Source: Minisyncoccota bacterium
GTDB taxonomy: Bacteria; Patescibacteriota; Minisyncoccia; Phycocordibacterales; GWA1-40-21
Assembly: GCA_041659365.1 (NCBI GenBank)
Contig: JBAZYH010000002.1
Span: 16,065 to 80,064, forward strand
Length of the DNA: 64,000 nt
Direction of reading: 5' to 3'
The notes beneath the pieces are model-generated. The model worked only from the letters and a program-made list of their open reading frames with translations. It searched no databases and was not told the origin of the DNA. Both the position numbers and the translations under genes were made by a program. Shown piece by piece: positions 3,169 through 40,542 of the stretch (positions are counted from its first letter, which is position 1; each line of letters begins with the position of its first letter).

Positions 3169-4086
3169 ATGAATCTTTTTATTATTATTTTAGGTATAAT
3201 TGGTTCCGTTTCCTTATTTTTGTATAGTGTTATTTCTTTTGGTAAAATCATTAAAAATACTGCTGGTCCCAAAATAAAAACCTTGTTGTCTTCTTTAACT
3301 TCTAACCCTTTTAAAGGTGTTATTTTTGGTACTGTATCTACTGCTATTCTTCAATCTAGTACCGCCACCTCTGTTTTGGTAGCTAGCTTAGCAGATGCTG
3401 GTTTGATTTCTTTTTATAATACCTTAGGAATAATATTTGGTGTAAATATAGGGACAACAATCACTTCTCAATTGATAGCTTTTAATGCAATGGCTATATC
3501 TCCTTTTATAATACTTCTTGGATTGATTATCTATTGGTGGGGAAATAGTTTTAAAAAATATGCTAGTTCGATTATATATTTTGGTTTATTGTTTTTTTCT
3601 ATTTATTTAATTTCAATTTTTGTTTCTTATATTGATCAAGAACTATTAGGATCATATCTTTCTATTACTTCTAATCCAATAATCGCTATTCTAGTTGGGG
3701 TAGTTGCTACCTTAATATTTCAATCTAGTAGTGTTGTGTCTGGTATTGTTTTAGTTCTCGCTGGTGTTGGTCATATCGATTTAGCTCAGTCTGTTGGTTT
3801 GATCTTAGGTGCCAATATAGGCACAACCTCTACAGTTATTATTGCTTCTCTCGCGATGGGTAAAGAAGCTAAAAAAGTTGCTCTATCACACTTTTTGTTC
3901 AATTTTCTAGGAGTGATTATTCTACTTCCTTTTATGGAGTATTTTTATAAAGTTGTTAAATGGTTAGATGGAGATATAGTTCATCAAGTAGCAAATATTC
4001 ATTTAATTTTTAATGTTGTTTGTGCTTTTATCTTTTTATTGGCAATAAAGCCATTTTCACTGTTGGTTAGTCGTTTAATTAAATAG
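3169..4086 (+). CDS. Na+/Pi-cotransporter family membrane protein (NptA-like)
   Basis: Polytopic membrane protein with duplicated GxNIGTT(I/S)T motifs (GVNIGTTITSQ and GANIGTTSTV). Confidence 0.6.
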   Translation: MNLFIIILGIIGSVSLFLYSVISFGKIIKNTAGPKIKTLLSSLTSNPFKGVIFGTVSTAILQSSTATSVLVASLADAGLISFYNTLGIIFGVNIGTTITSQLIAFNAMAISPFIILLGLIIYWWGNSFKKYASSIIYFGLLFFSIYLISIFVSYIDQELLGSYLSITSNPIIAILVGVVATLIFQSSSVVSGIVLVLAGVGHIDLAQSVGLILGANIGTTSTVIIASLAMGKEAKKVALSHFLFNFLGVIILLPFMEYFYKVVKWLDGDIVHQVANIHLIFNVVCAFIFLLAIKPFSLLVSRLIK

Positions 4087-4215
4087 TTAATTGTGTTTTA
4101 GGGGAGAATGCTGGTATATATATTGTTGCATCATTTTTTCTCTCGAAAATAGTTCTTACATCCTCGACCACGGCACCCAATTTTAAAAGCGGCTTATTGC
4201 CGTCTTTTTAAATTG

Positions 4216-4335
4216 GGTGCCTAAGCAAACAAACTGCTTTGTTTGCGTGAGAGAATCGAAAGATTTTTCCTTACCGAATATGATGAGGTGGAAAAATACC
4301 TGGCTATGTAATAGCCGATTCTCTCTAGGCACCCA
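4216..4335 (+). ncRNA. tRNA-like structured RNA, unit 1, mimicking the tRNA-His acceptor and T regions
   Basis: A 9-bp terminal stem GGGTGCCTA/TAGGCACCC closes the unit. The last 20 nt (4317-4336) are identical to the 3' end of tRNA-His at 1851-1870. Internal perfect stems: CAAACA/TGTTTG, GAGAGAATCG/CGATTCTCTC, GGCTA/TAGCC. Confidence 0.45.
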
Positions 4336-4371
4336 AGAAAGAAGAGTCTGCAGTAGCAGACTTTTTTCTTG

Positions 4372-4507
4372 GGTGGCTAAGTAAGTGCTAGTAAGCACTT
4401 ACGTTCGGGGGTTGAAGCCTCATTGAGCATATTTTATGAATGTTAATGAAATAAAATATCCAATAGGGATACTGTTCCTGTAAGGAAAAACTCCCCGATA
4501 GCCACCC
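4372..4507 (+). ncRNA. tRNA-like structured RNA, unit 2, tandem paralog of unit 1
   Basis: Same architecture as unit 1: 9-bp closing stem GGGTGGCTA/TAGCCACCC (a compensatory C:G to G:C swap relative to unit 1), AG, an 8-bp hairpin TAAGTGCT-AGTA-AGCACTTA, CGTT, and a long stem CGGGGG.../...CTCCCCG. Confidence 0.4.
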
Positions 4508-4578
4508 AATGTATTTTTTTAGATATTTAATCTTTAATTGTTGAGGACTTTTTAGTTCTACTTTGATATACTTTTAAA

Positions 4579-5410
4579 ATGGAAGAACAACCAAAACCAG
4601 AAGGAAAAATGGAAAAAACACCTATACCAGAGGTTCAGTTTGAGGTGTTGGGTATTAAAGATGAAATAGAGATGATATTTAGTTTTTGTATGCATAAAAA
4701 TCCAAGTTTAGATTTTAGTAAAGTTGTTTATAATGTACATCCAGAACTCAGAAAGATGGTTGATGGAATAACTGATGAAAAACAGTTTCATGAACAATGT
4801 GAAAAATACGTTTTAGATTATATTGATAAAAATAAAGAAGCACTAGAGAAATCTAAAAAACATTTTCAGAAAATTTGGAATCAGATTGGTGAAGACCTCT
4901 TAAAAAATCTTTTAGAAGATTTTGAGACTGATTTGCCCGAAGAAATAAAAGAAATTAAAGCAAATGTTTCTATTAACCCTATGTGTCCTAGATTTATAGA
5001 TAGATGGATGTTTAATTTATATTATAAATTTTCTGATAGTTCAATAGTAGGGGGTTTCTATTCATGAAATAATACATTTTGTATATTTTAAAAAGTGGTC
5101 AGAAGTTTTTCCCGACTCTGATCGTAAAAATTTTAATGGTATGAATTCTGAATGGATATTGAGCGAGATTTTGGTTCACACAATTATGAATAATAATAAG
5201 ATTATTCAAGGTATTGTGAAAAATGAAAAGTTTGAAGTCTATAAAAGATGGCAGTCTATTAGGGTTGATGGTAAAAAACTAGATGAATATTTTGATGGTT
5301 TTTATAAAGAACATGAAGAAGGAAAAATTTCTTTTGCTGATTTCTTGAGAAAATCTTGGGATGAATATCAAAAGAATAAAGATGTTATTGAAGGTAGTAT
5401 TAAGAAATAG
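4579..5410 (+). pseudogene. hypothetical protein interrupted by a +1 frameshift at a GGGGG run (5050-5054)
   Basis: ORF 4579..5067 (frame 1) continues without a stop in frame 2 from about 5052 (..GVSIHEIIHFVYFKKW..) into ORF 5141..5410. Confidence 0.4.
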
Positions 5411-9678: not shown

Positions 9679-9714
9679 GTCATTACGAGCAAAGCGTAGT
9701 AATCCAGGTTAATT
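9679..9714. repeat. palindromic intergenic repeat, family 1 (GTCATTGCGAGG...CGCAATCCAGGTTA), variant copy
   Basis: gtcattacgagcaaagcgtagtaatccaggttaatt. The family recurs at least 14 times in intergenic spacers. Confidence 0.55.
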
Positions 9715-9731
9715 AATTTATGAGATATTTC

Positions 9732-9808
9732 TTTTCCCTAAAACATTTTTTACTAAAAAAGTTCGGGCTAGCCCGAGTGTACCCGTCGCCCTAGGGCGGA
9801 CAATCTAT
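9732..9808. repeat. triple-palindrome repeat, family 2 (CCCTAAAACATTTT..CGGGCTAGCCCG..TCGCCCTAGGGCGA)
   Basis: Three consecutive palindromes. An inverted copy lies at 13664..13738, so the two flank the 9.8-13.7 kb gene block. Confidence 0.6.
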
Positions 9809-10557
9809 TTTGTACTAGATTGTCTTTTCCAATTATCCATTATTACTGCAGTAGCGATGGCTACATTGAGCGATTCGGTTTCTCCAAAAGAGGGGATCGT
9901 AACTTTTTCTTTAATAATATCTTCTATTTCTTTACTTATACCTTTTGATTCATTTCCCATGACGAGTATTCCATTTTTAGGAAAATCTTTTTTGTGTACA
10001 TTTTCGCCGTTGAGGAATGCACCAAGTACAGGGAATTTTGTTCTTGATAAGAAATCTTTTAAGTCAGTATAGAAAATATTTACTCTAGTAAATGATCCCA
10101 TAGATGCAGAAATAACCTTTGGATTATAAAAGTCCGCAGTTTCTTTTGATGCGACAATTTTATTTACTCCATACCAGTCTGCAATACGGATTATTGTACC
10201 CAAGTTTCCTGGATCTTTTATTTCATCGAGTGCTATTACAATCTCATTATCTTTTGTATCAAATTCACTGTTTATCTTTTGTTTTGCGACCGCAAGCACT
10301 GAGTCATTTGTTTCGAAGGCACTAACCTTTTCTATTTCAAATTGACTTACTATTTCGTAGATTTTTGATTTATCTCTTATTTGTTCACCATATTTATCAA
10401 AGAATTCTGTGGTGGTAAGTAGTATTTCTATTTCAAAATCTGATTTTAATAGTTCTGATACACTTTTTGTTCCTTCAACTAGGAAAAGACCAAGTTCTGT
10501 GCGGTTTTTCTTTTCGTGTAGAGATTTTATGAGTTTTTGTTGGTTCTTTGTTAACAT
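9805..10557 (-). CDS. TrmH/SpoU-family RNA 2'-O-methyltransferase (RlmB-like)
   Basis: SpoU substrate-binding N-terminal domain plus GNLGTIIRIADWYGV and ILVMGNESKGIS motifs. Confidence 0.75.
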   Translation of the reverse strand: MLTKNQQKLIKSLHEKKNRTELGLFLVEGTKSVSELLKSDFEIEILLTTTEFFDKYGEQIRDKSKIYEIVSQFEIEKVSAFETNDSVLAVAKQKINSEFDTKDNEIVIALDEIKDPGNLGTIIRIADWYGVNKIVASKETADFYNPKVISASMGSFTRVNIFYTDLKDFLSRTKFPVLGAFLNGENVHKKDFPKNGILVMGNESKGISKEIEDIIKEKVTIPSFGETESLNVAIATAVIMDNWKRQSSTK

Positions 10558-10587
10558 GGGGAAATCATAACATATATTATTATTTTA

Positions 10588-10706
10588 ATTAACCTGGATT
10601 GCTACGAGTGATTACACTCTCGCAATGACGGAGGAGGAGGTTTTGCTTTGCAAAATCTCCTCCTCCGTCATTGCGAGGAAAGAAGTGACGTGGCAATCCA
10701 GGTTTA
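10588..10706. repeat. family 1 repeats: inverted pair flanking a GGAGGAGGAGG hairpin
   Basis: aacctggattgc...ctcgcaatgac (10588-10629), then the hairpin ggaggaggaggttttgc-tttg-caaaatctcctcctcc, then gtcattgcgagg...caatccaggttt (10667-10706). Confidence 0.6.
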
Positions 10707-10745
10707 GTTACTGGATTTTTGTAGAAATTAATATAATATCAAGTT

Positions 10746-11189
10746 ATGAAAATACTTTTTATTACAGTCGGAAAACAAAATGATTCTAGTTTATCAGAAG
10801 CCGTAACTGACTATACAAAACGCATAAATAATTATTTTAAAACTGAATGGAAGATAATTCCGTCATCGGATATTAAAAAGGAGAGCGAGAATATTTTGAA
10901 GGGTATAGAATCTGATGATTATTTGATAGTTCTAGATGAAAGGGGAAAAGAACTTAGTACAATTGAGCTAGCTGATTTTATAGAAAAAAGAATGATAGCT
11001 AGTGATAAGAGAATTGTCTTTGTAATAGGTGGAGCTTATGGGGTAGATGAAGAAGTTTTACAGAGGGCAAATTTTAAATGGTCTTTATCTAAACTTGTAT
11101 TTCCTCATCAAATTGTAAGACTTATTCTTTCTGAGACTATTTATAGGGCTATAACGGTTATTAAAAACGAGCCGTATCATCATCAGTAG
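10746..11189 (+). CDS. rlmH: 23S rRNA (pseudouridine1915-N3)-methyltransferase RlmH
   Basis: SPOUT family YbeA-like: length about 150 aa, VFVIGGAYGVDEEV motif. Confidence 0.75.
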   Translation: MKILFITVGKQNDSSLSEAVTDYTKRINNYFKTEWKIIPSSDIKKESENILKGIESDDYLIVLDERGKELSTIELADFIEKRMIASDKRIVFVIGGAYGVDEEVLQRANFKWSLSKLVFPHQIVRLILSETIYRAITVIKNEPYHHQ

Positions 11190-11271
11190 TAAAAAGTAAA
11201 AAGTTCATAAGGTTTGTAAAGTATAAGAAAATGCTATAATTATATTGTTAATAGAATAATCAAATAAAAAA

Positions 11272-11655
11272 ATGAAAGGATTTGTAAAAAATATTGAAAA
11301 AGAAACTTTGGAAAATAATAATTTTAGAAAAGTTCTTTATACCTCAACTTATGGGCAAGTTGTTGTTATGTCACTTTTGCCAAATGAAGATATTGATATG
11401 GAAGTACATGAAGACACAGATCAATTTTTCCGAGTTGATAGTGGAGAAGGTAAAGTAATAATTGATGGTGAAGAGTCAATAATATCAGATGGATTTGCTG
11501 TGGTTGTACCAGCAGGATCACAACACAATGTAGTAAATACTTCATCTGATAAATCTCTTAAGCTTTATACTATTTATATGCCACCACATCATAAGGATGG
11601 AGTAGTTCATGCGACAAAGGCTGAAGCGGAGGCTGATACAGAAGATCATTTATAA
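11272..11655 (+). CDS. cupin-domain protein
   Basis: Small beta-barrel protein with His motifs (HEDTD...H) typical of cupins. Confidence 0.5.
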   Translation: MKGFVKNIEKETLENNNFRKVLYTSTYGQVVVMSLLPNEDIDMEVHEDTDQFFRVDSGEGKVIIDGEESIISDGFAVVVPAGSQHNVVNTSSDKSLKLYTIYMPPHHKDGVVHATKAEAEADTEDHL

Positions 11656-11731
11656 AAAAACAAAAGAAAAGCGAAGCTCACCATGGTGAGCTTCGCTTTT
11701 CTTTTGTGTGTTTTTTGTGTAATCTTTCTTT

Positions 11732-12292
11732 ATGGATCAAAAATATATAGATATACTTAAAAATAATGGGGTAGGGGTTATTCCAACAGATACTATTTAT
11801 GGTATTGCATGTTCTGTTTTTAATAAAGACGCATTAGATAGAATTTTTGAAATAAAAGGAAGGGATGAGAATAAACCTCCAGTGGTAATAATAAGTGATA
11901 TTAAAGAATTAGATATTTTTGGAATTAAACTTATAGATAAAGTAAAAAAATTTATAGATAAATACTGGCCAGGGAAAGTTAGTATTATATTTCAGATTTC
12001 TGCAGAATATAGTTATTTAGATAAGGGGAGAGGATTGGCAATAAGACTTGTTAATGATCCTAAAATAAAAGTTTTTCTTGAGAAAACTGGGCCACTCGCT
12101 ACTTCAAGTGCAAATACTCAAGGTTTACTACCTGCAAAAAATATAGAAGAGGCTAAAAAATATTTTGGTGAAAAAGTAGATTTTTATTATGATATTGGTG
12201 AGTTAGTTTCTGAACCATCAACTTTAGTAAAAATAGATGGAGATAAGATTGAAGTGTTGAGGCAGGGAGTGGTGAAGACAGAAGAGTTTTAA
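11732..12292 (+). CDS. tsaC: L-threonylcarbamoyladenylate synthase (TsaC/YrdC family)
   Basis: YrdC-domain motifs IPTDTIYGIAC, ...KGRDENKP..., SSANTQG. Confidence 0.75.
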   Translation: MDQKYIDILKNNGVGVIPTDTIYGIACSVFNKDALDRIFEIKGRDENKPPVVIISDIKELDIFGIKLIDKVKKFIDKYWPGKVSIIFQISAEYSYLDKGRGLAIRLVNDPKIKVFLEKTGPLATSSANTQGLLPAKNIEEAKKYFGEKVDFYYDIGELVSEPSTLVKIDGDKIEVLRQGVVKTEEF

Positions 12293-12317
12293 GGTTATAG
12301 TTTCTAGGTTTAAGTAA

Positions 12318-12362
12318 ACACACAAGACGAATTTTGCTTCGCAAAATTCGTCTTGTGTGTTT
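12318..12362. terminator. bidirectional rho-independent terminator (tsaC / GNAT convergent pair)
   Basis: acacacaagacgaattttgc-ttcg-caaaattcgtcttgtgtgt: a perfect 20-bp stem. Confidence 0.6.
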
Positions 12363-12379
12363 AAGTATTTATTGAGTGT

Positions 12380-12420
12380 CTTTGCGAGGAAGTACTCTGA
12401 CGTCGCAATCCAGGTTAATT
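12380..12420. repeat. family 1 palindromic repeat copy
   Basis: ctttgcgaggaagtactctgacgtcgcaatccaggttaatt. Confidence 0.55.
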
Positions 12421-12903
12421 TTATTTAATCAAAGTCTTTTCTAGAGTGATATTTATTTCCTCAGCTCCACGTTTTTTATAGAACTCTATTGCTTCTATAT
12501 TTTTGGCAGAAGCGACGAAACGAATTGTTTGTATTTTTTTATCATTGCACCAAGATTCAAATTGTTGAATTAATTTGCTACCGATACCTTGTTTTCTAGA
12601 ATTTTCATCAATATACATATTTTCTGCTTCCGCTATTGAAGTTATTGTTCTGTAATCTTCATTTGTGATGATTGAACCTATAAAATAGCCAGCAACTTTT
12701 TCGTCCTTTTTTGCGATAAGAACTAAAGAATTGTCAGATTCTATTCTTGATTTAAAATAATTCTCACCTTCTTTTGTAAAAGGGTAGTCTGTGTTTATTG
12801 TTTGATCATATTCTTTGTTTTCTTTCAGACAAAGTTCGTAATTAAAATTTTGAATTGATTTTAGATCAGCCAGATTTGCTTTTCTTATTGTAATATTTTC
12901 CAT
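12421..12903 (-). CDS. GNAT family N-acetyltransferase
   Basis: Acetyl-CoA binding motif RKQGIGSKLI... Confidence 0.65.
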   Translation of the reverse strand: MENITIRKANLADLKSIQNFNYELCLKENKEYDQTINTDYPFTKEGENYFKSRIESDNSLVLIAKKDEKVAGYFIGSIITNEDYRTITSIAEAENMYIDENSRKQGIGSKLIQQFESWCNDKKIQTIRFVASAKNIEAIEFYKKRGAEEINITLEKTLIK

Positions 12904-12947
12904 AAAGTAATTATATCAAGAATTAACAATATGTTATAATTTCTCTT

Positions 12948-13661
12948 ATGAATAATAAAACAATTATTTTTACAGATGGATCTTCAAGGGGAAATCCTGG
13001 TCCTGGCGGATGGGGAGCTATCGTGGCTACATCTGACGGAAAAGTAAAAGAACTTGGTGGTGGAGAAAAACATACAACAAATAATAGAATGGAGCTTATG
13101 GGGGCAATTTCTGCTCTTTCTATTTTAGATAATAATGACAGTATAATTTTAAATACCGACTCTTCTTATGTAATAAATGGAATTACAAAATGGGTTTATG
13201 GTTGGCAGAAAAATGGATGGAAAAACTCTATGAAAGAAGATGTTGTAAATAGAGATTTGTGGGAAAAACTTATAGAAGTTTCAAAAGATAAAGATATTAA
13301 GTGGAATTATGTTGGTGGACATGTTGGAATACCTGGTAACGAAAGATGTGATGAAATAGCTACAATGTTTGCCGATGGTAAAAGGATAGAATTATTTCAT
13401 GGTAAAAAAACTGATTATGAAGTTGATCTGTTAAACACGGCGGGTGATGGAGAGAAGAAAAAAACAAAAAAGAAAAGTGGTGCTACTGCATATTCATATT
13501 TAAGTTTAGTAGAAGGTAAATTACAAAAACATAAAACTTGGCCAGAATGTGAAAAGAGGGTTAAAGGAGTAAAAGGAAATGTTAAATTTAAAAAATCGGT
13601 AAGTGAGGAGGATGAGAAGGAAATAATGAGGGAGTGGCTAAATCAATCTACCTCAAAGTAG
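12948..13661 (+). CDS. rnhA: ribonuclease HI with a Lys-rich C-terminal extension
   Basis: IFTDGSSRGNPGPGGWGAIV, NNRMEL, DSSYVINGITKWVYGWQKNGWK are RNase H catalytic motifs. Confidence 0.8.
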   Translation: MNNKTIIFTDGSSRGNPGPGGWGAIVATSDGKVKELGGGEKHTTNNRMELMGAISALSILDNNDSIILNTDSSYVINGITKWVYGWQKNGWKNSMKEDVVNRDLWEKLIEVSKDKDIKWNYVGGHVGIPGNERCDEIATMFADGKRIELFHGKKTDYEVDLLNTAGDGEKKKTKKKSGATAYSYLSLVEGKLQKHKTWPECEKRVKGVKGNVKFKKSVSEEDEKEIMREWLNQSTSK

Positions 13662-13663
13662 AT

Positions 13664-13738
13664 TGATCGCCCTAGGGCGATGGGTACACCCGGGCTAGCC
13701 CGAACATTTTTAGTAAAAAATGTTTTAGGGGGAATAAA
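13664..13738. repeat. family 2 triple-palindrome repeat, inverted copy of 9732..9808
   Basis: gatcgccctagggcgatgggtacacccgggctagcccgaacatttttagtaaaaaatgttttaggggg is the reverse complement of the 9.73 kb copy. Confidence 0.6.
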
Positions 13739-13815
13739 ATAATAGGTTATAGTTTTTAGGTGTTAGGTTTTAGAAAAACAGAAGCTCATCATGGTGAGTT
13801 TCTGTTTTGTTTTGT

Positions 13816-13987
13816 GTCATTGCGAGGTGAGTGTTGGGATGGGGACCCAACATGCAAGACTCATTGAGAGCTTTTGTAATCAAAAGGTCCAATGAGTGGA
13901 CAGTCTCTGTAAGAGAATCCGTCGCAATCCAGGTTAATTAATTAAAAAAACCTGGATTACTACGTCGGATTACCTTCTCGTAATGAC
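13816..13987. repeat. family 1 repeat cluster: one copy split by a 95-nt GC-richer insert, plus an inverted copy
   Basis: gtcattgcgagg (13816-13827) ... cgcaatccaggttaatt (13923-13939), then the inverted copy aacctggattactacg...ctcgtaatgac (13949-13987). Confidence 0.5.
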
Positions 13988-14026
13988 ACAACGCAAAAGA
14001 ATAAAATTTTTTTATGTTAAACTACT

Positions 14027-15544
14027 TTGGTGATAAAAGATTTTGAACTATTGATTTCTATTTTTGGATTTGTTTTGGCGATTTTTATTTCTTCTTTTTT
14101 AAAAATTGGTTTTTCTTTTTTCTTGTTTTTAATTTTAATTTCAATTGTATTTTTTATTTATCAAAAATTTATTTGTAATGATGAATTTGATAAAAAAAAT
14201 ATTTTAATAATATCACTTTTTATATTTTCTTTTGCACTAGGAATACTCAGATATGAAATAAAAGATTCTTATATATTAGATTCTAACTTAGAAAATAATT
14301 TAAATAAGAAACTTACAGTCGAAGGAATAATTTTTGATGAGCCTGTTGTGAAAGATGATGGGGCGACTTTAATAGTTGATTTTAAAAATATAATACTTGC
14401 GAGTTCAAGTGCAGCTGTCTCCGGAAGAGGAATTATAAAAACAGATACTTATCCAGAATTTAAATATGGTGACTTAGTAAAGGTTACAGGTAAACTTGAG
14501 AAGCCAGAAAATTATTCTTCTACAAGTTCAGAAAGATTCTTTGATTATGTTTCTTATCTTGGTAAAGATAATATTTTTTATAAAATAGATTTTGCAAAAG
14601 CAGAGTTTGTTTCTTCGGGCCATGGTAATTTTATAAAATCATTTTTATTTAAAATTAAAAATAGTTTTATTGGAAATATTAATCGTGTAATATCCGAACC
14701 ACAATCCTCACTTCTTTCTGGTATTTTGCTCGGATCAAGAAACTCGATAGATGAAAAAACTTCTGAAACATTTCGTATTGCGGGACTTTCACATTTGATT
14801 GCACTCTCCGGATATAATATAACTATAGTTTCAGAAGCTATTATGAAAATGTTTTCTTTTCTTCCGAGAAACTTTGGACTATCTGGTGGTGTACTTGGAG
14901 TGATACTTTTTGTCTTGATGTCCGGGTCTTCTTCTACAGCCGTTCGAGCAGGTATAATGTCGCTTGTTGTTATACTTGCAAATGTTACACGAAGAAAATA
15001 TCAGGTTACTAGAGCTTTAATATTTGCCGCACTTTTAATGATAATTATAAATCCAAAGATTCTTGTATTTGATATATCTTTTCAACTTTCCTTTTTGGCT
15101 ACTGTTGCCATTATTTATGTTTCACCGATTCTAAAAGAAAAATTTCACTTTGTTACAGAGAGGTTTAAATTGAGAGAAACTGTTTCATCTACTATATCTG
15201 CACAGATTTTAGTTCTTCCATTAATAATATATAAGATGGGTTTAGTTTCTATAGTTTCATTACCTGTAAACGTTTTAGTTTTAACTTTTATACCCACAAT
15301 AATGCTTCTTGGTTTTCTTACGGGGCTTTTTGGTTATGTATGGATTATTTTATCTATTCCGTTTGCTTGGGTAACTTGGTTTTTACTTAGTTATATTATA
15401 GAAGTTTCAGAATTTTTTGCTGGGCTACCTTTTTCACATACAGAAATTAATTTTTTCCCAGTGGTGTTTTTGGTCGTTTCATATGTGATTATTATTTTTT
15501 GGATTTTGTATGAACAAAATAAAATTAATAAAAAAGAAAAATAA
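14027..15544 (+). CDS. comEC: ComEC/Rec2 competence channel, N-terminal membrane (competence) domain only
   Basis: Polytopic membrane protein with the Competence-domain motif SGILLGSRNSIDEKTSETFRIAGLSHLIALSGYNIT. It lacks the MBL domain, which is encoded separately at 16006..16866. Confidence 0.75.
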   Translation: MVIKDFELLISIFGFVLAIFISSFLKIGFSFFLFLILISIVFFIYQKFICNDEFDKKNILIISLFIFSFALGILRYEIKDSYILDSNLENNLNKKLTVEGIIFDEPVVKDDGATLIVDFKNIILASSSAAVSGRGIIKTDTYPEFKYGDLVKVTGKLEKPENYSSTSSERFFDYVSYLGKDNIFYKIDFAKAEFVSSGHGNFIKSFLFKIKNSFIGNINRVISEPQSSLLSGILLGSRNSIDEKTSETFRIAGLSHLIALSGYNITIVSEAIMKMFSFLPRNFGLSGGVLGVILFVLMSGSSSTAVRAGIMSLVVILANVTRRKYQVTRALIFAALLMIIINPKILVFDISFQLSFLATVAIIYVSPILKEKFHFVTERFKLRETVSSTISAQILVLPLIIYKMGLVSIVSLPVNVLVLTFIPTIMLLGFLTGLFGYVWIILSIPFAWVTWFLLSYIIEVSEFFAGLPFSHTEINFFPVVFLVVSYVIIIFWILYEQNKINKKEK

Positions 15545-15559
15545 AATTAATTTATTTTT

Positions 15560-15593
15560 GTCATTGCGAGGTAATCCATCGCAATCCAGGTTA
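15560..15593. repeat. family 1 palindromic repeat (short form)
   Basis: gtcattgcgaggtaatccatcgcaatccaggtta. Confidence 0.55.
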
Positions 15594-15604
15594 TAATAAA
15601 ATTA

Positions 15605-15892
15605 ATGGAAAAAATACCTTGTGTATATATACTTGCAAACAAAAGAAACGGAACTACTTATATTGGTGTAACTAGTAATTTAAAAAGAAGGATTTTTGAA
15701 CATAAAAATAATTTAGTGGATGGTTTTACAAAAAGATATAAAATTCACAATCTAGTTTATTATGAGACAGGAGATTCTATGGAAGGTGCGATAGAAAGAG
15801 AGAAACAAATTAAAAATTATTCAAGAGAAAAGAAAATATTATTGATTGAAGAGAATAATTCAGAGTGGAAAGATTTATCTTCTGAATTGTAG
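15605..15892 (+). CDS. GIY-YIG family nuclease
   Basis: CVYILANKRNGTTYIGVTSNLKRRIFEH is the GIY-YIG motif. It is inserted between the two ComEC halves. Confidence 0.7.
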   Translation: MEKIPCVYILANKRNGTTYIGVTSNLKRRIFEHKNNLVDGFTKRYKIHNLVYYETGDSMEGAIEREKQIKNYSREKKILLIEENNSEWKDLSSEL

Positions 15893-15984
15893 AACCTAGA
15901 TTACTACGCTATCGCTCGTAATGACAATACAAATTAATTGCACGTCATTGCGAGGAAGTACTCTGACGTCGCAATCCAGGTTAT
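15893..15984. repeat. family 1 repeats, inverted pair
   Basis: aacctagattactacg...ctcgtaatgac then gtcattgcgaggaagtactctgacgtcgcaatccaggtta. Confidence 0.55.
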
Positions 15985-16005
15985 AATGAGATTAAATTTT
16001 CTAAT

Positions 16006-16866
16006 GTGATGAAACTAAATAAAAACATAAAATTATATTCCTTACTTTTTCTTATAATTATTAATATAATTATTTTTTATGCTGTATCTTTTGGTGACCA
16101 CAAAGGATTATTAAAAGTTACTTTTTTAGATGTTGGGCAAGGTGATTCTGTTTTTATAGAATCACCAGATGGAAATCAAATACTTATAGATAGTGGAGCA
16201 AACAAAAATATTTCAAATGTTTTATCTAGAGTAATGCCTTTTTATGATAGATCCATCGATGTACTAATTGCTACTCATCCAGATCAAGACCATATTGGTG
16301 GTTTTCCAGAGATTTTAAAAAGATATAAAGTTGGTAGATATTTTGATGATGGACTTGTAGGTGAGACAGCAACTTTCAAAGAAATCTCTTATAAACTTGT
16401 AGATGAAAAAATTAATGAGGAACGATTGATAAAAAATGAAATCCTAGATTTAGGAGATGGGGTATTTTTAAAAATATTTTATCCAAGTATAGAACTAGAA
16501 GGTAGTGATACAAATAAAAATTCTGTAGTAACGAAACTTATTTATGGTGATTCGAATATTTTACTTACTGGAGATATACCAACTGATGTAGAAAAATATT
16601 TAGCCATGACTGAGGGGAAAGAATTGAAAAGTGATATTTTGAAAGTTGCACACCATGGTTCTAGGAATTCTCTTTCAGAAGAATTCTTCTCCGCGGTTTC
16701 TCCTGAGTATTCAATAATTTCTGCTTCTAAAGATAATAGTTTTGGACATCCTCACAAAGAAATAATAGATGCTTTAAATAATATTGGTACAAATATTTTG
16801 AGGACTTATGAAATGGGGGATATAACTTTTGTTTCGGACGGGAATAAGTTTATATTAAAAAAATAA
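16006..16866 (+). CDS. ComEC C-terminal metallo-beta-lactamase domain protein
   Basis: N-terminal TM anchor, then LDVGQGDS...IDSG...THPDQDHIGG, the MBL HxHxDH motif typical of the ComEC nuclease domain. Confidence 0.7.
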   Translation: MMKLNKNIKLYSLLFLIIINIIIFYAVSFGDHKGLLKVTFLDVGQGDSVFIESPDGNQILIDSGANKNISNVLSRVMPFYDRSIDVLIATHPDQDHIGGFPEILKRYKVGRYFDDGLVGETATFKEISYKLVDEKINEERLIKNEILDLGDGVFLKIFYPSIELEGSDTNKNSVVTKLIYGDSNILLTGDIPTDVEKYLAMTEGKELKSDILKVAHHGSRNSLSEEFFSAVSPEYSIISASKDNSFGHPHKEIIDALNNIGTNILRTYEMGDITFVSDGNKFILKK

Positions 16867-16890
16867 CCCACTTTCGTGGATTATTTTTTT
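16861..16890. repeat. 30-nt terminator-like direct repeat (aataacccactttcgtggattattttttt), copy 1
   Basis: Hairpin aataacccac-tttc-gtggattatt plus a T-run. An identical copy lies at 17141..17170, so the two flank the gene 16889..17098. Confidence 0.5.
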
Positions 16891-17098
16891 AATCATTCCT
16901 CTTAAAACTTTTTGTTCTTTTGGGGGGATTTTTTATATTTGCATTATGTTCATTTATAGCATCTTTTAGTTCTAATTTTGCCCTTAAAAAAGGGTCATTC
17001 TCTGTCTTTGCTTCCATTATTTTTTCAGCACGTTCTTCTTTTGTTACCGGCTTTACTTCAGAAGGTCCACTTTCTTGTCCTATAAATATTCTTTCCAT
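16889..17098 (-). CDS. hypothetical small protein
   Basis: 69-aa ORF between two identical terminator-like repeats. No recognisable motif. Confidence 0.3.
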   Translation of the reverse strand: MERIFIGQESGPSEVKPVTKEERAEKIMEAKTENDPFLRAKLELKDAINEHNANIKNPPKRTKSFKRND

Positions 17099-17140
17099 AT
17101 GTAAATTGTATTCTTACTAGTATGATTGTCAAACTAAAAA

Positions 17141-17170
17141 AATAACCCACTTTCGTGGATTATTTTTTTT
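17141..17170. repeat. 30-nt terminator-like direct repeat, copy 2
   Basis: aataacccactttcgtggattatttttttt. Confidence 0.5.
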
Positions 17171-17209
17171 GTATTTCTTTTTACTTTACAAACTTTATGA
17201 ACTTTTAAC

Positions 17210-17455
17210 TTATTTAATGAGTCCCGCTTTCTTCAAAGTTACAAATGCACCGTTCTTTTGTATTGTCTTAAGTGCTCTTGTAGAAATCTTTAGGATAAAA
17301 GTCTTTTTTAATTCAGGAACGTAGATTCTCTTTTTCTGTAAGTTTATATGTTTTCTAACTTTTCCAGTAGGGTTATATTGAGTAGCACGAGTAGCGTTAC
17401 TGTAGCCACCACCCATTATTGAACCTCTTTTTGTTATTGGACAGATTTTTGCCAT
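17210..17455 (-). CDS. rpmB: 50S ribosomal protein L28
   Basis: MAKICPITKRGSIMGGGYSNATRATQYNP...FILKISTRALKTIQKNG is bL28-like. Confidence 0.7.
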   Translation of the reverse strand: MAKICPITKRGSIMGGGYSNATRATQYNPTGKVRKHINLQKKRIYVPELKKTFILKISTRALKTIQKNGAFVTLKKAGLIK

Positions 17456-17527
17456 TGGTTTATTTTTAAATTAAGTCTCAACATGCTATCATATAAAAGT
17501 TAGCTTTGCAAGATATATAATAAAAAA

Positions 17528-18142
17528 ATGGATTCAAACATAATTTTTCAAATAATCATTTTAATTTTCTCTGTCATAATACATGAAGTTTCTCATGGTG
17601 CTATGGCTTTGGCTTTTGGAGACAGGACCGCTCAATACGAGGGGAGGCTTACTTTAAATCCAATAAAACACATAGACATTTTCGGTTCTATTATATTGCC
17701 ATTTTTACTTTTTATTAGTCATGCTGGTTTTATGATCGGTTGGGCAAAACCAGTGCCTTACAACCCTTATAATCTTAGAAATCCTAAAATAGCTGAGCCT
17801 CTAGTCTCTTTTGCTGGGCCATTATCAAATATAATGGTGGCTGTAATATTCGGGTTAATAATTCGCTTTGTATTGGTATTAAACCCTAGTTTGGTTAGTT
17901 TAGTTACTGTTTTTAGCTATGTTGTCATAATAAACATTAGTTTGGCTATTTTTAACCTAGTCCCTATACCACCACTTGATGGTTCAAAGATACTTTTTTC
18001 AATGTTTCCAAATCGATTCGCCTTTTCTGAAGCTTGGGCAAAATATGGTATTTTTATAATAATTCTTTTACTTACGTTCATATCTAGTATTATTTCTCCT
18101 ATAATCTTTTGGTTGTTTAGGTTGATAACTGGGTTAAATTAA
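17528..18142 (+). CDS. site-2 protease family (M50) zinc metallopeptidase
   Basis: HEVSHGAMA (HExxH) in TM1, LTLNPIKHID, polytopic. COG1994-like. Confidence 0.65.
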   Translation: MDSNIIFQIIILIFSVIIHEVSHGAMALAFGDRTAQYEGRLTLNPIKHIDIFGSIILPFLLFISHAGFMIGWAKPVPYNPYNLRNPKIAEPLVSFAGPLSNIMVAVIFGLIIRFVLVLNPSLVSLVTVFSYVVIINISLAIFNLVPIPPLDGSKILFSMFPNRFAFSEAWAKYGIFIIILLLTFISSIISPIIFWLFRLITGLN

Positions 18143-18262
18143 GGATATTCTATTGTTTTGAGGTGTTTTTACTATTGACAAATAATATAAAAGGTGTATT
18201 ATTATATATAAGATAGTTCTTTTATAAATTACTTGTATATAAGTTCGAAAATAGCGAAAAAC

Positions 18263-18320
18263 AGTTAGTCATAGCCAAAAGCTCTTGAAATATCAAAGGT
18301 TTTTGGCTATGACTACTACG
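18263..18320. repeat. palindrome family 3 (TAGTCATAGCCAAAA-N20-TTTTGGCTATGACTA)
   Basis: cagttagtcatagccaaaagctcttgaaatatcaaaggtttttggctatgactactac. A second copy lies at 38068..38125, and both sit just upstream of GC-rich genes. Confidence 0.5.
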
Positions 18321-18353
18321 GTGGTAGTTGAATTTTAACTCGCTCACTTAAAA

Positions 18354-18998
18354 ATGAGCAAAACGAAAAAGGGTGACGTTATGCAAAACAAGACTTCATC
18401 TGTAGAACAGAAGTCTATGACAGAAGACCAAATCGAAGAGGTCGTTTCTGATTTAAGAGTGCTTCTCACGAAGCACTCAACCGAATTTACTTCGGAAGCG
18501 GTGCGACTCGCTCTTGAACAGTCTGGGTTTTTTGACAAGATGTTTCAGGCTTTTCGTCGGTGTGTCAAAACGGTCAGCGGTCTGATTATTTTTCACGTAG
18601 TAGTGGATCGTAAACAGGAACCAGTTGATGCCCTCAAGGCAACCGGTTGTGTTCTGAATTTCAATGACGCTGACGCAGAGATGATGCCGAAGGGTGATGG
18701 TGAAAAGACAGAAATTTTCTTCTTTAGGGTTGGGCGTAGTATCAATGATGACGAGTTGGATAAGGAATATAAACAGCATGGTTTTATACCAGCTGATCCA
18801 TATTCGTTGGCGAAGGTTGTTCAGGATAACAATACTTTTGCAAGCGAACACTCTATTGCCACTCACTGGAAGGATAAGAATGATAAGTGGTGTGTTGTCA
18901 GATTCAATAGTTGGGGTCACGAGCGTCGTGTGTATGTTGGCCGTAACTATGTTCGTTTTTGGTCTAAAAACTGGTGGTTTGCAGGTATTTGCAAGTAA
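18354..18998 (+). CDS. hypothetical protein on a GC-rich islet
   Basis: 214-aa ORF with strong coding periodicity. Local GC is far above the flanks. No recognisable domain. Confidence 0.5.
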   Translation: MSKTKKGDVMQNKTSSVEQKSMTEDQIEEVVSDLRVLLTKHSTEFTSEAVRLALEQSGFFDKMFQAFRRCVKTVSGLIIFHVVVDRKQEPVDALKATGCVLNFNDADAEMMPKGDGEKTEIFFFRVGRSINDDELDKEYKQHGFIPADPYSLAKVVQDNNTFASEHSIATHWKDKNDKWCVVRFNSWGHERRVYVGRNYVRFWSKNWWFAGICK

Positions 18999-19069
18999 TT
19001 AACTCGGACCTCGGTCCATACTCAATGCCCTTATTTAGCTTCGGCTAGGTGAGGGTGTTTTTCTTTTTA

Positions 19070-19105
19070 TAGGCACGGTTTGCGAAGCAAACCGTGCCTT
19101 TTCTT
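19070..19105. terminator. rho-independent terminator
   Basis: aggcacggtttgc-gaa-gcaaaccgtgcctttt. Confidence 0.6.
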
Positions 19106-19122
19106 TTGTATTTTTCTTTTTC

Positions 19123-19210
19123 GTCATTGCGAGGAAGTATTCTGACGTCGCAATCCATGATTCAATTAATTAACCTAGATTATTACGTCGGGTTACCTCC
19201 TCATAATGAC
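19123..19210. repeat. family 1 repeats, inverted pair
   Basis: gtcattgcgaggaagtattctgacgtcgcaatccatgatt, then the inverted aacctagattattacgtcgggttacctcctcataatgac. Confidence 0.55.
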
Positions 19211-19566
19211 GCAATACAATTTGCATTTTAGAACTTTTATGTTATTATCTCAACACATTATCTCGGTCGTGAGATATGTCGTTTTCAGGCAAAAGTGAGT
19301 AATCGATTTCAGTAGCTTTTAAAAAAGCATCTCAAACTGATCTCGGTGAAGAATTCACAATTGCCAAGTTAGAAAAATAAATTAGGCAAAAGATTATAAA
19401 TTTTATAACCTTGTTTATTTTTGTTTTTATTATTAGAAGTTTAAGGAGTGAAGGGATAATATTATTTTTTACCCCAGTGAAATATCTGCTAGACGCAGAT
19501 CAGAGCAGTAGCTCTATTTCACGGGGTGATGATTTTTATTGTCGCTTCGCTCTGTAAAAATCAATC

Positions 19567-23071: not shown

Positions 23072-23881
23072 ATGAAAAAATATTTTCTAGGTTTGTTTTG
23101 TCTCCTTACATTTGCTTCAGTATTTTTTGTTGGAGTAAATAGTTCTTATGCATTAGTATCTGGGGCTAATACAAAATATGACTTTAATAAAGATGGTAAG
23201 ATTGACATAAGAGATGTTCAGGATATTTCTGAGGTCATTGATCAAAAAGACAACTCTGCTGACTTTGATCTAAATAGTGATAATAAGGTTGATATAAAAG
23301 ATTTGAAAATTCTCAGAGCTAAAGCAGGTGCCTCACAGTTCGATTTCAACAGAGACGGTAGAGTTGATATTAAAGATGTTCAGGATATTTCTGAGGCTAT
23401 TGATCAAAAAAACAACTATGCTTACTTTGATCTAAACAGTGATGGAAAAGTTGATATAAAAGATTTAAAAATTCTTAGGGCCAAAGCGGGTGTCTCACAG
23501 TTTGATTTCAACAGAGACGGTAAAGTTGATATTAAAGATGTTGATGATATTTCTGAGGCTATTGATCAAAAAAACAACTATGCTTACTTTGATCTAAACA
23601 GTGATGGAAAGGTTGATATAAAAGATTTAAAAATTCTTAGGGCCAAAGCGGGTGTCTCACAGTTTGATTTCAACAGAGACGGTAAGACTGATGTTGAAGA
23701 TGTTGATGATATTTCTGAGGCTATTGATCAAAAAAACAACTATGCTTACTTTGATCTAAACAGTGATGGAAAAGTTGATATAAAAGATTTGAAAATCTTA
23801 AAATCAAAAGTTAAGACCCTTGGTGTGAGTCAATCTTTAGTTTCAAAAATAATGGCTAGTGTTTTAGAAGCATTTAAATAG
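23072..23881 (+). CDS. secreted dockerin-like (Ca-binding) repeat protein
   Basis: Signal peptide followed by eight DxNxDGK(V/I)D(I)xD dockerin/EF-hand-like segments. The DNA is four near-identical tandem repeats of about 183 bp (about 23300-23810). Confidence 0.65.
   Translation: MKKYFLGLFCLLTFASVFFVGVNSSYALVSGANTKYDFNKDGKIDIRDVQDISEVIDQKDNSADFDLNSDNKVDIKDLKILRAKAGASQFDFNRDGRVDIKDVQDISEAIDQKNNYAYFDLNSDGKVDIKDLKILRAKAGVSQFDFNRDGKVDIKDVDDISEAIDQKNNYAYFDLNSDGKVDIKDLKILRAKAGVSQFDFNRDGKTDVEDVDDISEAIDQKNNYAYFDLNSDGKVDIKDLKILKSKVKTLGVSQSLVSKIMASVLEAFK
23300..23810. repeat. four tandem repeats of about 183 bp inside the dockerin-like gene
   Basis: Near-identical units, each encoding FD(F/L)N(R/S)DG(K/R)VDIKDV..ISEAIDQKNNYAYFDLNSDGKVDIKDLKILRAKAG. 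Confidence 0.6.
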
Positions 23882-33965: not shown

Positions 33966-34185
33966 GTCATTGCGAGGTAATCCGTCGCAATCCAGGTTAA
34001 ATTTGTATTGTCATTCCCGCGTAAGCGGGAATCCAGGATTTGTATGGGTATTGTCTTTGTGAATGTGTAATCACCTGTGGCAATCCATGTTAATTAATTT
34101 AAAATAGATACAAACCTGGATTGCGACCACGTAAAAATGATTACATTCACGTGGCACAGCGTCGGATTACCTTCTCGCAATGACA
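33966..34185. repeat. hotspot of family 1 palindromic repeats (at least four copies or variants)
   Basis: gtcattgcgaggtaatccgtcgcaatccaggttaa; the variant gtcattcccgcgtaagcgggaatccagg; ggcaatccatgttaatt; and an inverted aacctggattgcg..ctcgcaatgac split by a hairpin. Confidence 0.6.
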
Positions 34186-34216
34186 AAAAATATAAATTAA
34201 TAAATAACAAATAATA

Positions 34217-38067: not shown

Positions 38068-38125
38068 AATAGTCATAGCCAAAATATATCAATATTTTTA
38101 ATATTTTTTGGCTATGACTATTACT
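38068..38125. repeat. palindrome family 3 (TAGTCATAGCCAAAA-N-TTTTGGCTATGACTA), copy 2
   Basis: cagaatagtcatagccaaaatatatcaatatttttaatattttttggctatgactattac, in the promoter region of gene 36597..38015. Confidence 0.5.
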
Positions 38126-38299
38126 TTAAAAGTAAGATTTAATTATAAAAGAACACTCCATATTATTGGGAGTACACTATTTATACTGTATGCTTGAAAA
38201 AATGGTTGTCAATGGTATTGAGTGGAGAGGTGTTTTTAAAAGTAAAGATAAAAGAAAAACCCACCAAAGAAAAATGGTGGGTTTTTCTTTGGTGGGTGA

Positions 38300-38695
38300 C
38301 TACCTGAGACGAATCCCAGATTCACGCACCGCGCGGGTGAGGGACTTCTCGATGAGGCGGGGGAGCTTCTTGAGAAGTTTGTCGAGATGCGTCACTGCTT
38401 CGTCAAAAATCAACTGGCATTGAGGGTTAAGTTTTTCTGGGTCTTCCTCAGAAAGATTATTGATTCTCACGAGACATTCCCATACCTTCTGAAGTTCTTT
38501 GATATCCTTTTCAGAACCAAAAGACTGACGAAGGAAACGGTGACTTCTTTTTACACACATGCGGGGTATGCTGAGGCGTCCCCTATAGTGTAAATGAGGT
38601 GGTTCGGACTTTTCGTCCAAAATCATCGTTTTTAAACTGCGAACCGAACTCATGACACGGTCACGATACTCGTCCGCCATTTTTTTGATATCCAT
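38300..38695 (-). CDS. hypothetical protein (GC-rich island)
   Basis: Start at MDIKKMADEY with an aaaggag SD 7 nt upstream. The longer ORF-track start is probably read-through. Confidence 0.45.
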   Translation of the reverse strand: MDIKKMADEYRDRVMSSVRSLKTMILDEKSEPPHLHYRGRLSIPRMCVKRSHRFLRQSFGSEKDIKELQKVWECLVRINNLSEEDPEKLNPQCQLIFDEAVTHLDKLLKKLPRLIEKSLTRAVRESGIRLR

Positions 38696-38815
38696 CTGTA
38701 AACTCCTTTCAAAAGAGTGTTTGTGATTTTTGTAGATAACTTTCTGTTTATATAGTAGCAAGGGATTTGGATGGTGTCAATGGGTGGGGGTGGTAAAAAA
38801 TTAGAAATTAAAAAT

Positions 38816-38850
38816 AGAAAAACCCCGTTCACATTTCGTTACTAGGGGCT
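38816..38850. repeat. 35-nt direct repeat gaaaaaccccgttcacatttcgttactagggg, copy 1
   Basis: Identical copy at 39393..39427. Each sits immediately 3' of a minus-strand gene, suggesting a terminator/att-like role. Confidence 0.45.
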
Positions 38851-38859
38851 TTGTGTTGT

Positions 38860-39261
38860 TCACGAGCAGAGAGCACGGATTGCTGCTTTTTCGAGATCAC
38901 TTCCATCGGCAGTATGGGCGTACATTCTACGTCGTTCTTCTTGTGTGGTAGCGTTATCCAGGATTACCAGCATTGCTATTCTCTCGACCTCACTTCCACT
39001 CGGAGCATTGTTGTATACTTTATATCGCTCTTCTTGGGAGGTGGCATTATCGAGTATTATCTTCAGTGCTTCCTCTCGAATTCCGCCTGTAACAGGACTA
39101 TCGTTATATACTGACCACCGCTTATTTTGGGTGGTTGCAGCTTCGAGACGCATTTTCAACGGAAGATCATCTCCCGTTATAATTCCAAAAGCCCTAGCAA
39201 TTTTTTTCGCAGGAATACCAATCTTTTTTGCTTTTTTGACGCAATCAGCATAAGTTTTCAC
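38860..39261 (-). CDS. hypothetical protein with three internal repeats of about 31 aa
   Basis: RWSVYNDSPVTGGIREEALKIILDNATSQEE / RYKVYNNAPSGSEVERIAMLVILDNATTQEE / RRRMYAHTADGSDLEKAAIRALCS. Confidence 0.5.
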   Translation of the reverse strand: MKTYADCVKKAKKIGIPAKKIARAFGIITGDDLPLKMRLEAATTQNKRWSVYNDSPVTGGIREEALKIILDNATSQEERYKVYNNAPSGSEVERIAMLVILDNATTQEERRRMYAHTADGSDLEKAAIRALCS

Positions 39262-39392
39262 TTTTCTTTTCCTTTCTTGAGAGAGAACTTGAACTACTTA
39301 ATATAATATCAAAGTAAAATAAGTGTGTCAATGGTGGAGTGTAATGGTTCAATAACTTGGACTCAAAATATAAGTAATATAAATAAATAGAA

Positions 39393-39427: not shown

Positions 39428-39441
39428 GTATTTCACCAGTT

Positions 39442-40540: not shown

Positions 40541-40542
40541 CA

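Follow-up and report, generated by a model that had tools for sequence, protein, structure and literature searches.

Tandem tRNA-His-like units in a Minisyncoccota genome belong to a family of structured modules at gene 3' flanks

The stretch of DNA analysed here, called the window below, covers 64,000 nt of contig JBAZYH010000002.1 (assembly GCA_041659365.1, positions 16,065 to 80,064 of the forward strand) from a Minisyncoccota bacterium. Downstream of its tRNA-His gene lie two tandem units closed by stems, Units 1 and 2, which a first-pass annotation, made without database searches, had described as structured RNAs that mimic tRNA-His. The units are indeed structured and derived from tRNA-His, as seen from a 20-nt identity and from fold z-scores, and they are members of an abundant and apparently undescribed family of modules, found in Paceibacterota and related bacteria of the Candidate Phyla Radiation (CPR), mainly at the 3' flanks of tRNA and transfer-messenger RNA (tmRNA) genes. 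Their resemblance to a tRNA is best explained by copying, and not by selection for a tRNA function.

Units 1 and 2 and the sister modules of the window

The following features make up the locus; MFE stands for minimum free energy.

1798-1869, + strand: tRNA-His (GTG), called by ARAGORN and by the Rfam tRNA model (65 bits), with G-1 at 1797
4172-4221: long hairpin composed of a GGCACCCAA arm, a terminator-like core (4189-4203) and a TTGGGTGCC arm, which rivals the closing stem of Unit 1 (inverted repeat, terminator scan, MFE fold)
4213-4336, + strand: Unit 1, a stem-closed type A module (inverted repeats, identity check, 13 type A homologues)
4263-4270/4290-4297: helix P3 of Unit 1
4302-4316: helix P4 of Unit 1, GGCTA-TGTAA-TAGCC
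4326-4379: long hairpin joining the direct copy of Unit 1 to the 5' arm of Unit 2, whose core (4345-4362) and T run are terminator-like (inverted repeat, terminator scan, MFE fold)
4369-4509, + strand: Unit 2, a stem-closed type B module (match to the module of tRNA-Ile, 34 modules with a TGTAA hairpin)
4406-4411/4493-4497: T-like helix of Unit 2, CGGGGG/CCCCG
about 4429-4459: inner hairpin of Unit 2
4469-4487: ATACTG and the TTCC-TGTAA-GGAA hairpin of Unit 2

The two units have the sequence features that had been reported for them, at coordinates shifted by one base. The closing stem of Unit 1 is formed by GGGTGCCTA (4215-4223) and TAGGCACCC (4326-4334), that of Unit 2 by GGGTGGCTA (4371-4379) and TAGCCACCC (4499-4507). 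The last 20 nt of tRNA-His (1851-1870) are the source of the direct copy of Unit 1, CGATTCTCTCTAGGCACCCA (4316-4335), the two being identical at 20 of 20 positions. Unit 1 also contains a perfect 10-bp T-like stem, GAGAGAATCG/CGATTCTCTC (4249-4258/4316-4325), and each unit has a perfect 9-bp hairpin, called hp9 (4225-4246 in Unit 1, 4381-4402 in Unit 2). When closed, Unit 1 reproduces the 8-bp acceptor helix of tRNA-His, including the G-1:C73 pair, continued by a helix that resembles a T-stem; the anticodon arm is absent from both units and the T-loop sequence is base-paired. The closing stems differ from each other by a paired change from C:G to G:C. This swap is real. It had been taken as the hallmark of selection on RNA structure, which it is not on its own, since each pair of arms could be copied from another tRNA-His allele.

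The alternative hairpins that had been noticed across the closing stems are real as well, and they are preferred in the MFE fold (-146.6 kcal/mol, compared to -139.8 kcal/mol when both units are closed and -144.0 kcal/mol when only Unit 2 is closed). Folded in isolation, the units adopt the closed form (-54.5 and -57.7 kcal/mol). The 361-nt region is far more stable than shuffled sequences, with z = -10.3 on the + strand and -12.6 on the - strand. The promoter and terminator scan of about 3900-4800 gave no convincing promoter on either strand, and the preceding terminator leaves no promoter space before the unit. Just 3' of Unit 2, the open reading frames (ORFs) at 4579-5067 and 5141-5410 look like one gene split by a stop codon or a frameshift.

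Known RNA families do not account for the units. Over the window, ARAGORN calls only tRNA-His, tRNA-Ile and tRNA-Ser; it finds nothing at 4050-4620 and reports no resume codon or tag frame, and neither ARAGORN nor Rfam calls a tRNA (RF00005) at 4173-4510. No family of Rfam 15 matches Units 1 and 2, whether at the gathering threshold or at a permissive one: the best match in 4050-4620, SNORA31 (26 bits, E = 0.014), is spurious. In 11 loci bearing modules, Rfam matched tRNAs and tmRNAs only, and a literature search, in which the hp9 sequence itself was also used, found no paper describing the modules in the library searched. Group I introns occur in tRNA genes of Patescibacteria at position 35/36 (PMC13011429); the units were also considered as intron-bearing tRNA genes, an idea that was rejected as this intron site is unrelated to the layout of the modules.

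A window-wide repeat search revealed related 58-nt stretches at 39909, 55890 and 60603, lying just beyond the terminator hairpins of the tmRNA, tRNA-Ile and tRNA-Ser genes, respectively. Each stretch contains, in this order, the T-loop and T-stem 3' strand of its own gene, ACG, a 9-bp hairpin, CT and the acceptor 3' strand of its own gene, and all three can be aligned with Units 1 and 2 read in reverse complement. R1, a covariance model of the 62-nt hp9 end of the modules, matches exactly five places in the 64 kb with E of 6e-11 or less (the next best match has E = 0.34), including Unit 1 (4203-4264, - strand, E 5.8e-11) and Unit 2 (4362-4420, - strand, E 2.7e-11). There are one or two matches per tRNA or tmRNA gene, and all four of these genes have a homologous module. 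The tmRNA, the sister modules and their host tRNAs are the following.

39999-40475, - strand: genuine tmRNA (Rfam RF00023, 84 bits, E 4.3e-31, full model length), which aligns to the tmRNA of a relative (L003) and lies about 350 nt from smpB
39733-39966, - strand (tRNA-sense): module just 3' of the tmRNA, with type D motifs, the same hp9 sequence as the tRNA-Ile module and an R1 match at 39905-39966
55797-55947, - strand: type B module just 3' of tRNA-Ile (55979-56054, - strand), with an R1 match and shared inner domains
60417-60660, - strand: a type B module and a partial type A module 3' of tRNA-Ser (60685-60772, - strand)

The similarity extends beyond the hp9 end. Positions 4422-4474 of Unit 2 are 83% identical over 53 nt to the tRNA-Ile module, compensatory changes included, the Unit 1 hairpin GGCTATGTAATAGCC is found again in the tRNA-Ser locus, and an identical 25-mer is common to the tmRNA and tRNA-Ile modules (55904-55928 in the latter). 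With the 3' end of its tRNA, the tRNA-Ile module takes part in a near-perfect palindrome of 63 nt.

All these modules have the same layout. In gene sense, which is the + strand for Units 1 and 2, the gene 3' end is followed by a terminator (A-run, hairpin, T-run), an inverted arm, a core and a direct copy. The inverted arm is the reverse complement of the last 20 nt or so of the gene, interrupted after some 9 nt by hp9, the loop of which is usually CTGC; more precisely, it comprises the complement of the acceptor 3' strand and discriminator, an A, hp9, GT, and the complement of the T-stem 3' strand and of part of the T-loop. The distal direct copy is uninterrupted and runs from the T-loop to the gene 3' end. 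The closing stems are thus the inverted arm paired with the distal copy, and the alternative hairpins the arm paired with the preceding copy across the terminator. The modules are 110-180 nt long and non-coding, with several structured core types.

Other repeats are present in the window. The region 38100-39500 has only overlapping low-confidence ORFs on both strands, and a 55-nt direct repeat (38812-38866/39385-39439) stands just before the tmRNA-adjacent module. The tmRNA gene, which ARAGORN missed and Rfam called, has a 65-nt insertion relative to the L003 tmRNA; this insertion (40188-40259) is a repeat also found 5' of the tmRNA (40470-40541) and at 9736-9768. About ten copies of a second repeat family, unrelated to the modules and recognised by motifs such as GTCATTGCGAGG...CGTCGCAATCCAGGTTAATTAATT, are spread in both orientations over 9695-19214 and 33966-34188. 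At 23172-23795 a repeat of about 300 nt is present three times in tandem (162-nt spacing, 87-88% identical), probably within a coding region.

Distribution and turnover of the modules

Relatives were compared over 80 loci anchored on SmpB, in addition to the window (loci are designated below by L numbers). The SmpB loci place the source organism in Candidatus Paceibacterota (Patescibacteria/CPR). R1 detects modules in several of them, mostly directly 3' of the tmRNA. For 15 of the 140 tRNA and tmRNA genes of this test, the last 14 nt recur as a direct copy within 700 nt downstream; the upstream control gave no such case. When whole loci are searched, the downstream direct copies occur almost only at 100-180 nt; 17 of 18 are located 43-256 nt past the gene, with a spacing of 100-260 nt between the repeats, and the sole distant one is that of the tRNA-His of the window, at 2.4 kb. 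The left edge of the repeat is always within the T-loop, at T54, C56 or R57 (16 modules), and the repeat, which measures 17-24 nt or more, sometimes runs on through the terminator. Mirror versions exist: a copy of the gene 5' end is present upstream of 11 of 144 genes (reversed controls 0/144), and the tRNA-Asn of L090 has both an upstream module closed by its 5'-end copy and a downstream module closed by its 3'-end copy.

The family is widespread in metagenomes. The 18-nt hp9 variant AAGCAAACTGCTTTGCTT, used as a probe, matches at least 120 metagenome contigs. Among the 127 hp9 matches listed, 58 are on the same strand and at most 120 nt 3' of a tRNA or tmRNA gene and 7 more at 121-400 nt; 12 share the strand of the gene but lie 5' of it, and 8 lie on the other strand. 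A further 12 are separated from the nearest tRNA by over 400 nt, and the remaining 30 belong to loci, many of which are short, without a detected tRNA. The tRNAs adjoining the listed matches are of about 18 specificities, in addition to the tmRNA. The canonical layout recurs throughout these loci, a clear case being the tRNA-Ser of L304. Type A modules, similar to Unit 1 (n = 13), and type B modules, similar to Unit 2 and having the TGTAA hairpin (n = 34), occur alongside type D, a common type recognised by the motifs GAGnnGGGGTCG and GTGACC, and further core types. R1 applied to 100 metagenome loci mostly re-finds the hp9 variant used for fetching them, the model being too narrow for an unbiased collection.

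The modules are not restricted to genes of structured RNAs. A type D module starts a few nt past the stop codon of rpsI (ribosomal protein S9) in L323 (4900-5080) and L318, and in L348 (5600-5900) one begins 12 nt past the topA stop codon, its distal copy being a diverged duplicate of the last 70 nt or so of the coding sequence. In these cases the arms derive from coding sequence. The presence of the same module type after rpsI and topA makes the mimicry of tRNA incidental to the family.

Modules are present or absent at the same place in different relatives and they accumulate in tandem. The spacer between tRNA-Met and tRNA-Asp is 49 nt long in L368 and about 100 nt in L310, and it contains a type A module in L401; this is the only usable comparison of a filled and an empty site, and its flanks are not alignable. 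In L390, at least five type D units, all identical and 136 nt long, follow one another in tandem at about 4160-4725, and each of them includes hp9 and a short stretch copied from the flank. The 3' flank of the tmRNA holds different core types in different relatives. Some arms are 'fossils': in L001 and L008 a mismatched tmRNA-type arm, GAGATGAG, is kept at the tRNA-Ile and tRNA-Ser modules, and the T-stem sequence of the window's tmRNA module, CTCAC, is the allele of the L003 tmRNA and not that of the window's own tmRNA.

The neighbourhood of Units 1 and 2 bears traces of similar events. The units are parted from tRNA-His by a 2.3-kb segment with a glycosyltransferase and a Na/Pi-symporter gene, and the end of Unit 2 resembles the sequence 5' of the glycosyltransferase gene in a 95%-related strain. 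One more feature lies just upstream of Unit 1.

4125-4180, - strand: deletion remnant of a minus-oriented composite module, whose + strand ends in CGACCACGGCACCCAA; the full-length module is at 4520-4768 of L081

The GGCACCCAA of this remnant is one arm of the hairpin at 4172-4221. In L081 the full-length composite module is upstream of the glycosyltransferase/Na/Pi pair, and in L088 the same remnant is 3' of the Na/Pi gene, as in the window. The two-gene segment has evidently moved relative to the GGCACCCA copies, which is consistent with recombination at these repeats.

Two kinds of putative nuclease genes were noted near tRNA and tmRNA genes. Small GIY-YIG genes (products of ~90 aa) are located just 5' of tRNA or tmRNA genes, in the same orientation, in L025, L059, L383, L035, L300, L333, L010, L401 and L317. 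Of 20 tblastn matches to GIY-YIG (19 in relatives and one in the window), 13 are within 200 nt of a tRNA or tmRNA gene and 12 of those are upstream; the gene of the window (40543-40818, - strand), 68 nt 5' of the tmRNA, is one of the 13. Two HNH-type ORFs (803-1790, + strand) end 7 nt before tRNA-His. In L035 a 17-nt 5' fragment of tRNA-Ile precedes the GIY-YIG gene, and no 5' copy of tRNA-His was found upstream of the HNH genes. These genes may be cassettes similar to homing endonucleases, which use tRNA promoters, and their products are candidates, and candidates only, for the mobilisation of the modules.

In L057 (7262-7442), a fragment that begins at +45 after tRNA-Ile measures 43 nt and extends from the anticodon loop to the 3' end; a type C module comes next. 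This fragment is a classic scar of the integrase type, and the locus shows that both kinds of duplication of tRNA ends occur in these genomes.

Structure of the modules and origin of their arms

The modules are genuinely structured. From 11 type A modules, RNAalifold recovers hp9, the T-like helix, P3 and P4, and 24 of the 30 pairs show compensatory double changes; in 6 type B modules compensatory changes affect 24 of 42 pairs. The internal helices of the homologues covary. In 22 distinct variants of hp9 the stems vary in sequence and yet remain Watson-Crick (193 Watson-Crick pairs, 2 G·T, 2 A·C).

Neither strand stands out as the one on which the structure, as RNA or as DNA, would act. Raw MFE values are better for the gene-sense strand, which is G-rich, in 22 of 26 modules, a signal that disappears after control for composition: the corrected z-scores are equal on both strands (-5.65 and -5.60, p = 0.65). 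The ratio of G·T to A·C pairs (11:8 in the closing helices, 2:2 in hp9) shows no significant bias to an RNA strand.

Genes whose acceptor stem has a G·U pair are informative on the origin of the arm, since their 5' strand differs from the complement of their 3' strand. The arm is the complement of the gene 3' strand in 13 of the 14 genes of this kind. As a consequence of this mode of copying, the modules of tmRNA and tRNA-Ala have lost the G3·U70 identity pair, in place of which they have A3-U70. A selection for tRNA identity is not borne out by these pairs; the tRNA-His case itself is uninformative, G-1:C73 being a Watson-Crick pair. In 26 modules the distal copy is not identical to the proximal gene end; the arm fits the gene end better in 21 of these, one is the opposite case and four are ties. 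[quoted passage not shown]

Explanations of the family

The explanation that we prefer, and to which we give an even chance of being correct, is that the modules form a family of structured insertion modules, similar to miniature inverted-repeat transposable elements (MITEs), whose arms are taken from the host gene. Units 1 and 2 would then be tandem type A and type B copies of a family that colonises gene 3' flanks, and their mimicry of tRNA-His a by-product. The element would be selfish and would act at the DNA level, probably via single-strand hairpin intermediates, whereas its transcription would be passive only, as a trailer of the host gene. The look of a minihelix made of acceptor and T-arm would result from the making of the arms, both being copied from the tRNA 3' end. 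The data show that the family exists, how it is laid out, that the arms originate as complements, that helices covary, that presence is polymorphic and that tandem arrays occur; mobility, DNA-level action and a mobilising enzyme are inferred.

Several points weigh against this explanation. To our knowledge, no known transposition or integration chemistry yields an inverted copy of the target split by a hairpin together with a direct copy. No integrase or transposase adjoins any module among the neighbours examined, and no clean pair of orthologous empty and filled sites with alignable flanks was recovered, BLAST searches with the flanks that follow modules being swamped by tandem modules. The strong covariation of the internal helices would also fit selection on RNA structure, as would the L348 arm, which is complementary to the distal copy although this copy has diverged from the functional gene end. 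In the alignments, G·U pairs outnumber A·C pairs in the gene-sense reading (13:6 and 11:7), a trend which is not significant and which RNAalifold favours by itself. Lastly, the strictly gene-sense orientation implies co-transcription, at least where no terminator intervenes, as after rpsI and topA.

The main alternative, which we consider possible but unlikely, is a functional cis-acting RNA in the trailer or 3' untranslated region, whose antisense arm would pair either with the gene 3' end or with the distal copy and would thereby switch 3'-end maturation, stability or termination. The two conformations of the region, close in energy at -146.6 and -139.8 kcal/mol, would suit such a switch, and the arm does track the functional gene end. 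Orientation is in its favour (65 downstream matches on the same strand versus 5 on the opposite strand, among the 127 listed) and so is the absence of a terminator between rpsI or topA and the module; in most tRNA cases, however, the terminator of A-run, hairpin and T-run precedes the module. The covarying helices, and a G·T pair that recurs in P3 of type B modules and is tolerated only on the gene-sense strand, are expected of an RNA, but the excess of G·U pairs is not significant. A function in cis also agrees poorly with the patchy distribution among relatives (18 of 144 genes in the unbiased loci), with the interchangeability of the core types and with the tandem arrays of identical units.

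A second alternative is that the modules are scars of site-specific integration, the direct copies being displaced tRNA 3' ends (attR) and the 110-180 nt the leftover ends of deleted integrase elements. The attB site of phage Ms6 lies in the T-loop of tRNA-Ala (PMC1762012), and fragments of tRNA genes left by integration are documented (PMC9897764). As with the attachment sites of the T-loop class, the direct repeat of the modules runs from the T-loop to the gene 3' end or beyond, which is the case at 1851-1870 and 4316-4335; copies build up in tandem, and those that are displaced hold foreign or older alleles. The 43-nt fragment of L057 and the glycosyltransferase and Na/Pi genes enclosed between tRNA-His and a degenerate GGCACCCAA copy point in the same direction. 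Nevertheless, the spacing is uniformly small, reaching 2.3 kb only at the tRNA-His of the window, where the enclosed genes are of the housekeeping type, and the modules are non-coding with no integrase nearby. IMG/VR viral contigs, scanned with exact patterns of three module motifs, gave only unrelated coding matches, in about the number expected by chance, and no sign of a phage attP. Integration predicts neither the conserved covarying interior nor the additional inverted copy split by hp9, and the mirror-image modules that copy 5' ends upstream of tRNAs, like the copies at protein genes, are equally foreign to it. We regard this origin as improbable for the family.

A small chance is also left to an insertion guided by base pairing, in which arms complementary to the gene 3' end would flank a protein-binding hp9 and direct a single-stranded DNA or RNA element to that site. 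The arms would be rewritten for each target, and the nuclease could be a GIY-YIG or HNH protein.

It is very unlikely that Units 1 and 2 are a free-standing small RNA that imitates tRNA-His as a decoy or substrate for RNase P, HisRS, the CCA-adding enzyme or the guanylyltransferase, as the first-pass annotation had envisaged in part. The 8-bp acceptor helix of closed Unit 1, its G-1:C73 pair and its T-stem-like continuation speak for it, as does the closed fold of the isolated units. The same architecture is found, however, at the tmRNA, at every kind of tRNA, tRNA-Ile and tRNA-Ser included, and at the rpsI and topA mRNAs; identity elements are lost wherever this can be judged (A3-U70 for G3·U70), there is no promoter space after the preceding terminator, and in context the open form is preferred. 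Plant mitochondrial t-elements and other tRNA-like processing signals invite comparison. The t-elements, the MALAT1-associated small cytoplasmic RNA (mascRNA) and the tRNA-like domains of tmRNAs have an acceptor helix coaxial with a T-arm-like helix and no anticodon arm, and lie near genes. The modules share this arrangement and also adjoin genes, but their helix arises from complement copying, with loss of G·U identity pairs and with the T-loop sequence paired, and the rpsI and topA modules carry coding-derived helices instead.

Finally, there is virtually no chance that the units are the tmRNA of this genome, or one piece of a two-piece tmRNA. The acceptor-like and T-like helices without anticodon arm would suit a tmRNA, and the first-pass annotation had named the units a weak candidate in view of the SmpB gene, which is indeed encoded at 40823-41269; this reading is refuted by the full-length tmRNA found elsewhere in the window, near smpB, and the tmRNA model gives no match in 4050-4620 even at E = 10, where the acceptor-like helix is of the tRNA-His type and has neither the G3·U70 pair that specifies alanine nor a tag reading frame.

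The preferred explanation, a MITE-like family, has close parallels. The REP (repetitive extragenic palindromic) sequences and BIMEs (bacterial interspersed mosaic elements), the Correia elements of Neisseria and the palindromic elements of Rickettsia are short, multi-copy, non-coding and closed by stems; they occur at gene 3' ends, are polymorphic, form tandems or mosaics and are co-transcribed. Likewise, the modules are short, non-coding and multi-copy, with inverted termini and polymorphism of presence and absence. They differ in that their terminal arms are copied from the adjacent gene instead of being specific to the element, in that no transposase was identified, and in that their direct repeat, at 17-24 nt or more and up to about 70 nt at topA, exceeds the length of a short target-site duplication. 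Integron attC sites, the ends of insertion sequences of the IS200/IS605 type and palindrome-associated transposable elements (PATEs) conserve a structure while the sequence of the stems varies, and have subterminal hairpins and conserved loops. The subterminal hp9 and TGTAA hairpins of the modules, with conserved loops and variable stems, resemble these as a functional analogy only: the modules have no identified IntI or TnpA partner and no defined cleavage motif, and their arms are derived from the target.

An element guided by base pairing, for which there is a modest chance, would be categorically new, and it would amount to programmable targeting of tRNA genes in CPR bacteria by a new route. 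For Units 1 and 2, the analysis sets aside the readings as tmRNA and as tRNA-His decoy. If the family is confirmed, an uncatalogued structured repeat which copies the ends of host genes would flank the majority of tRNA and tmRNA genes in much of the CPR. The tRNA-like fragments and hairpins of this repeat would then confuse the prediction of tRNAs, terminators and non-coding RNAs in metagenome-assembled genomes of Patescibacteria. In terms of mechanism, there would be either a new mode of mobility or a new kind of tRNA-trailer RNA to be found, and the 3' ends of tRNA genes would be marked as hotspots of insertion, inversion and cassette exchange in these very small genomes.

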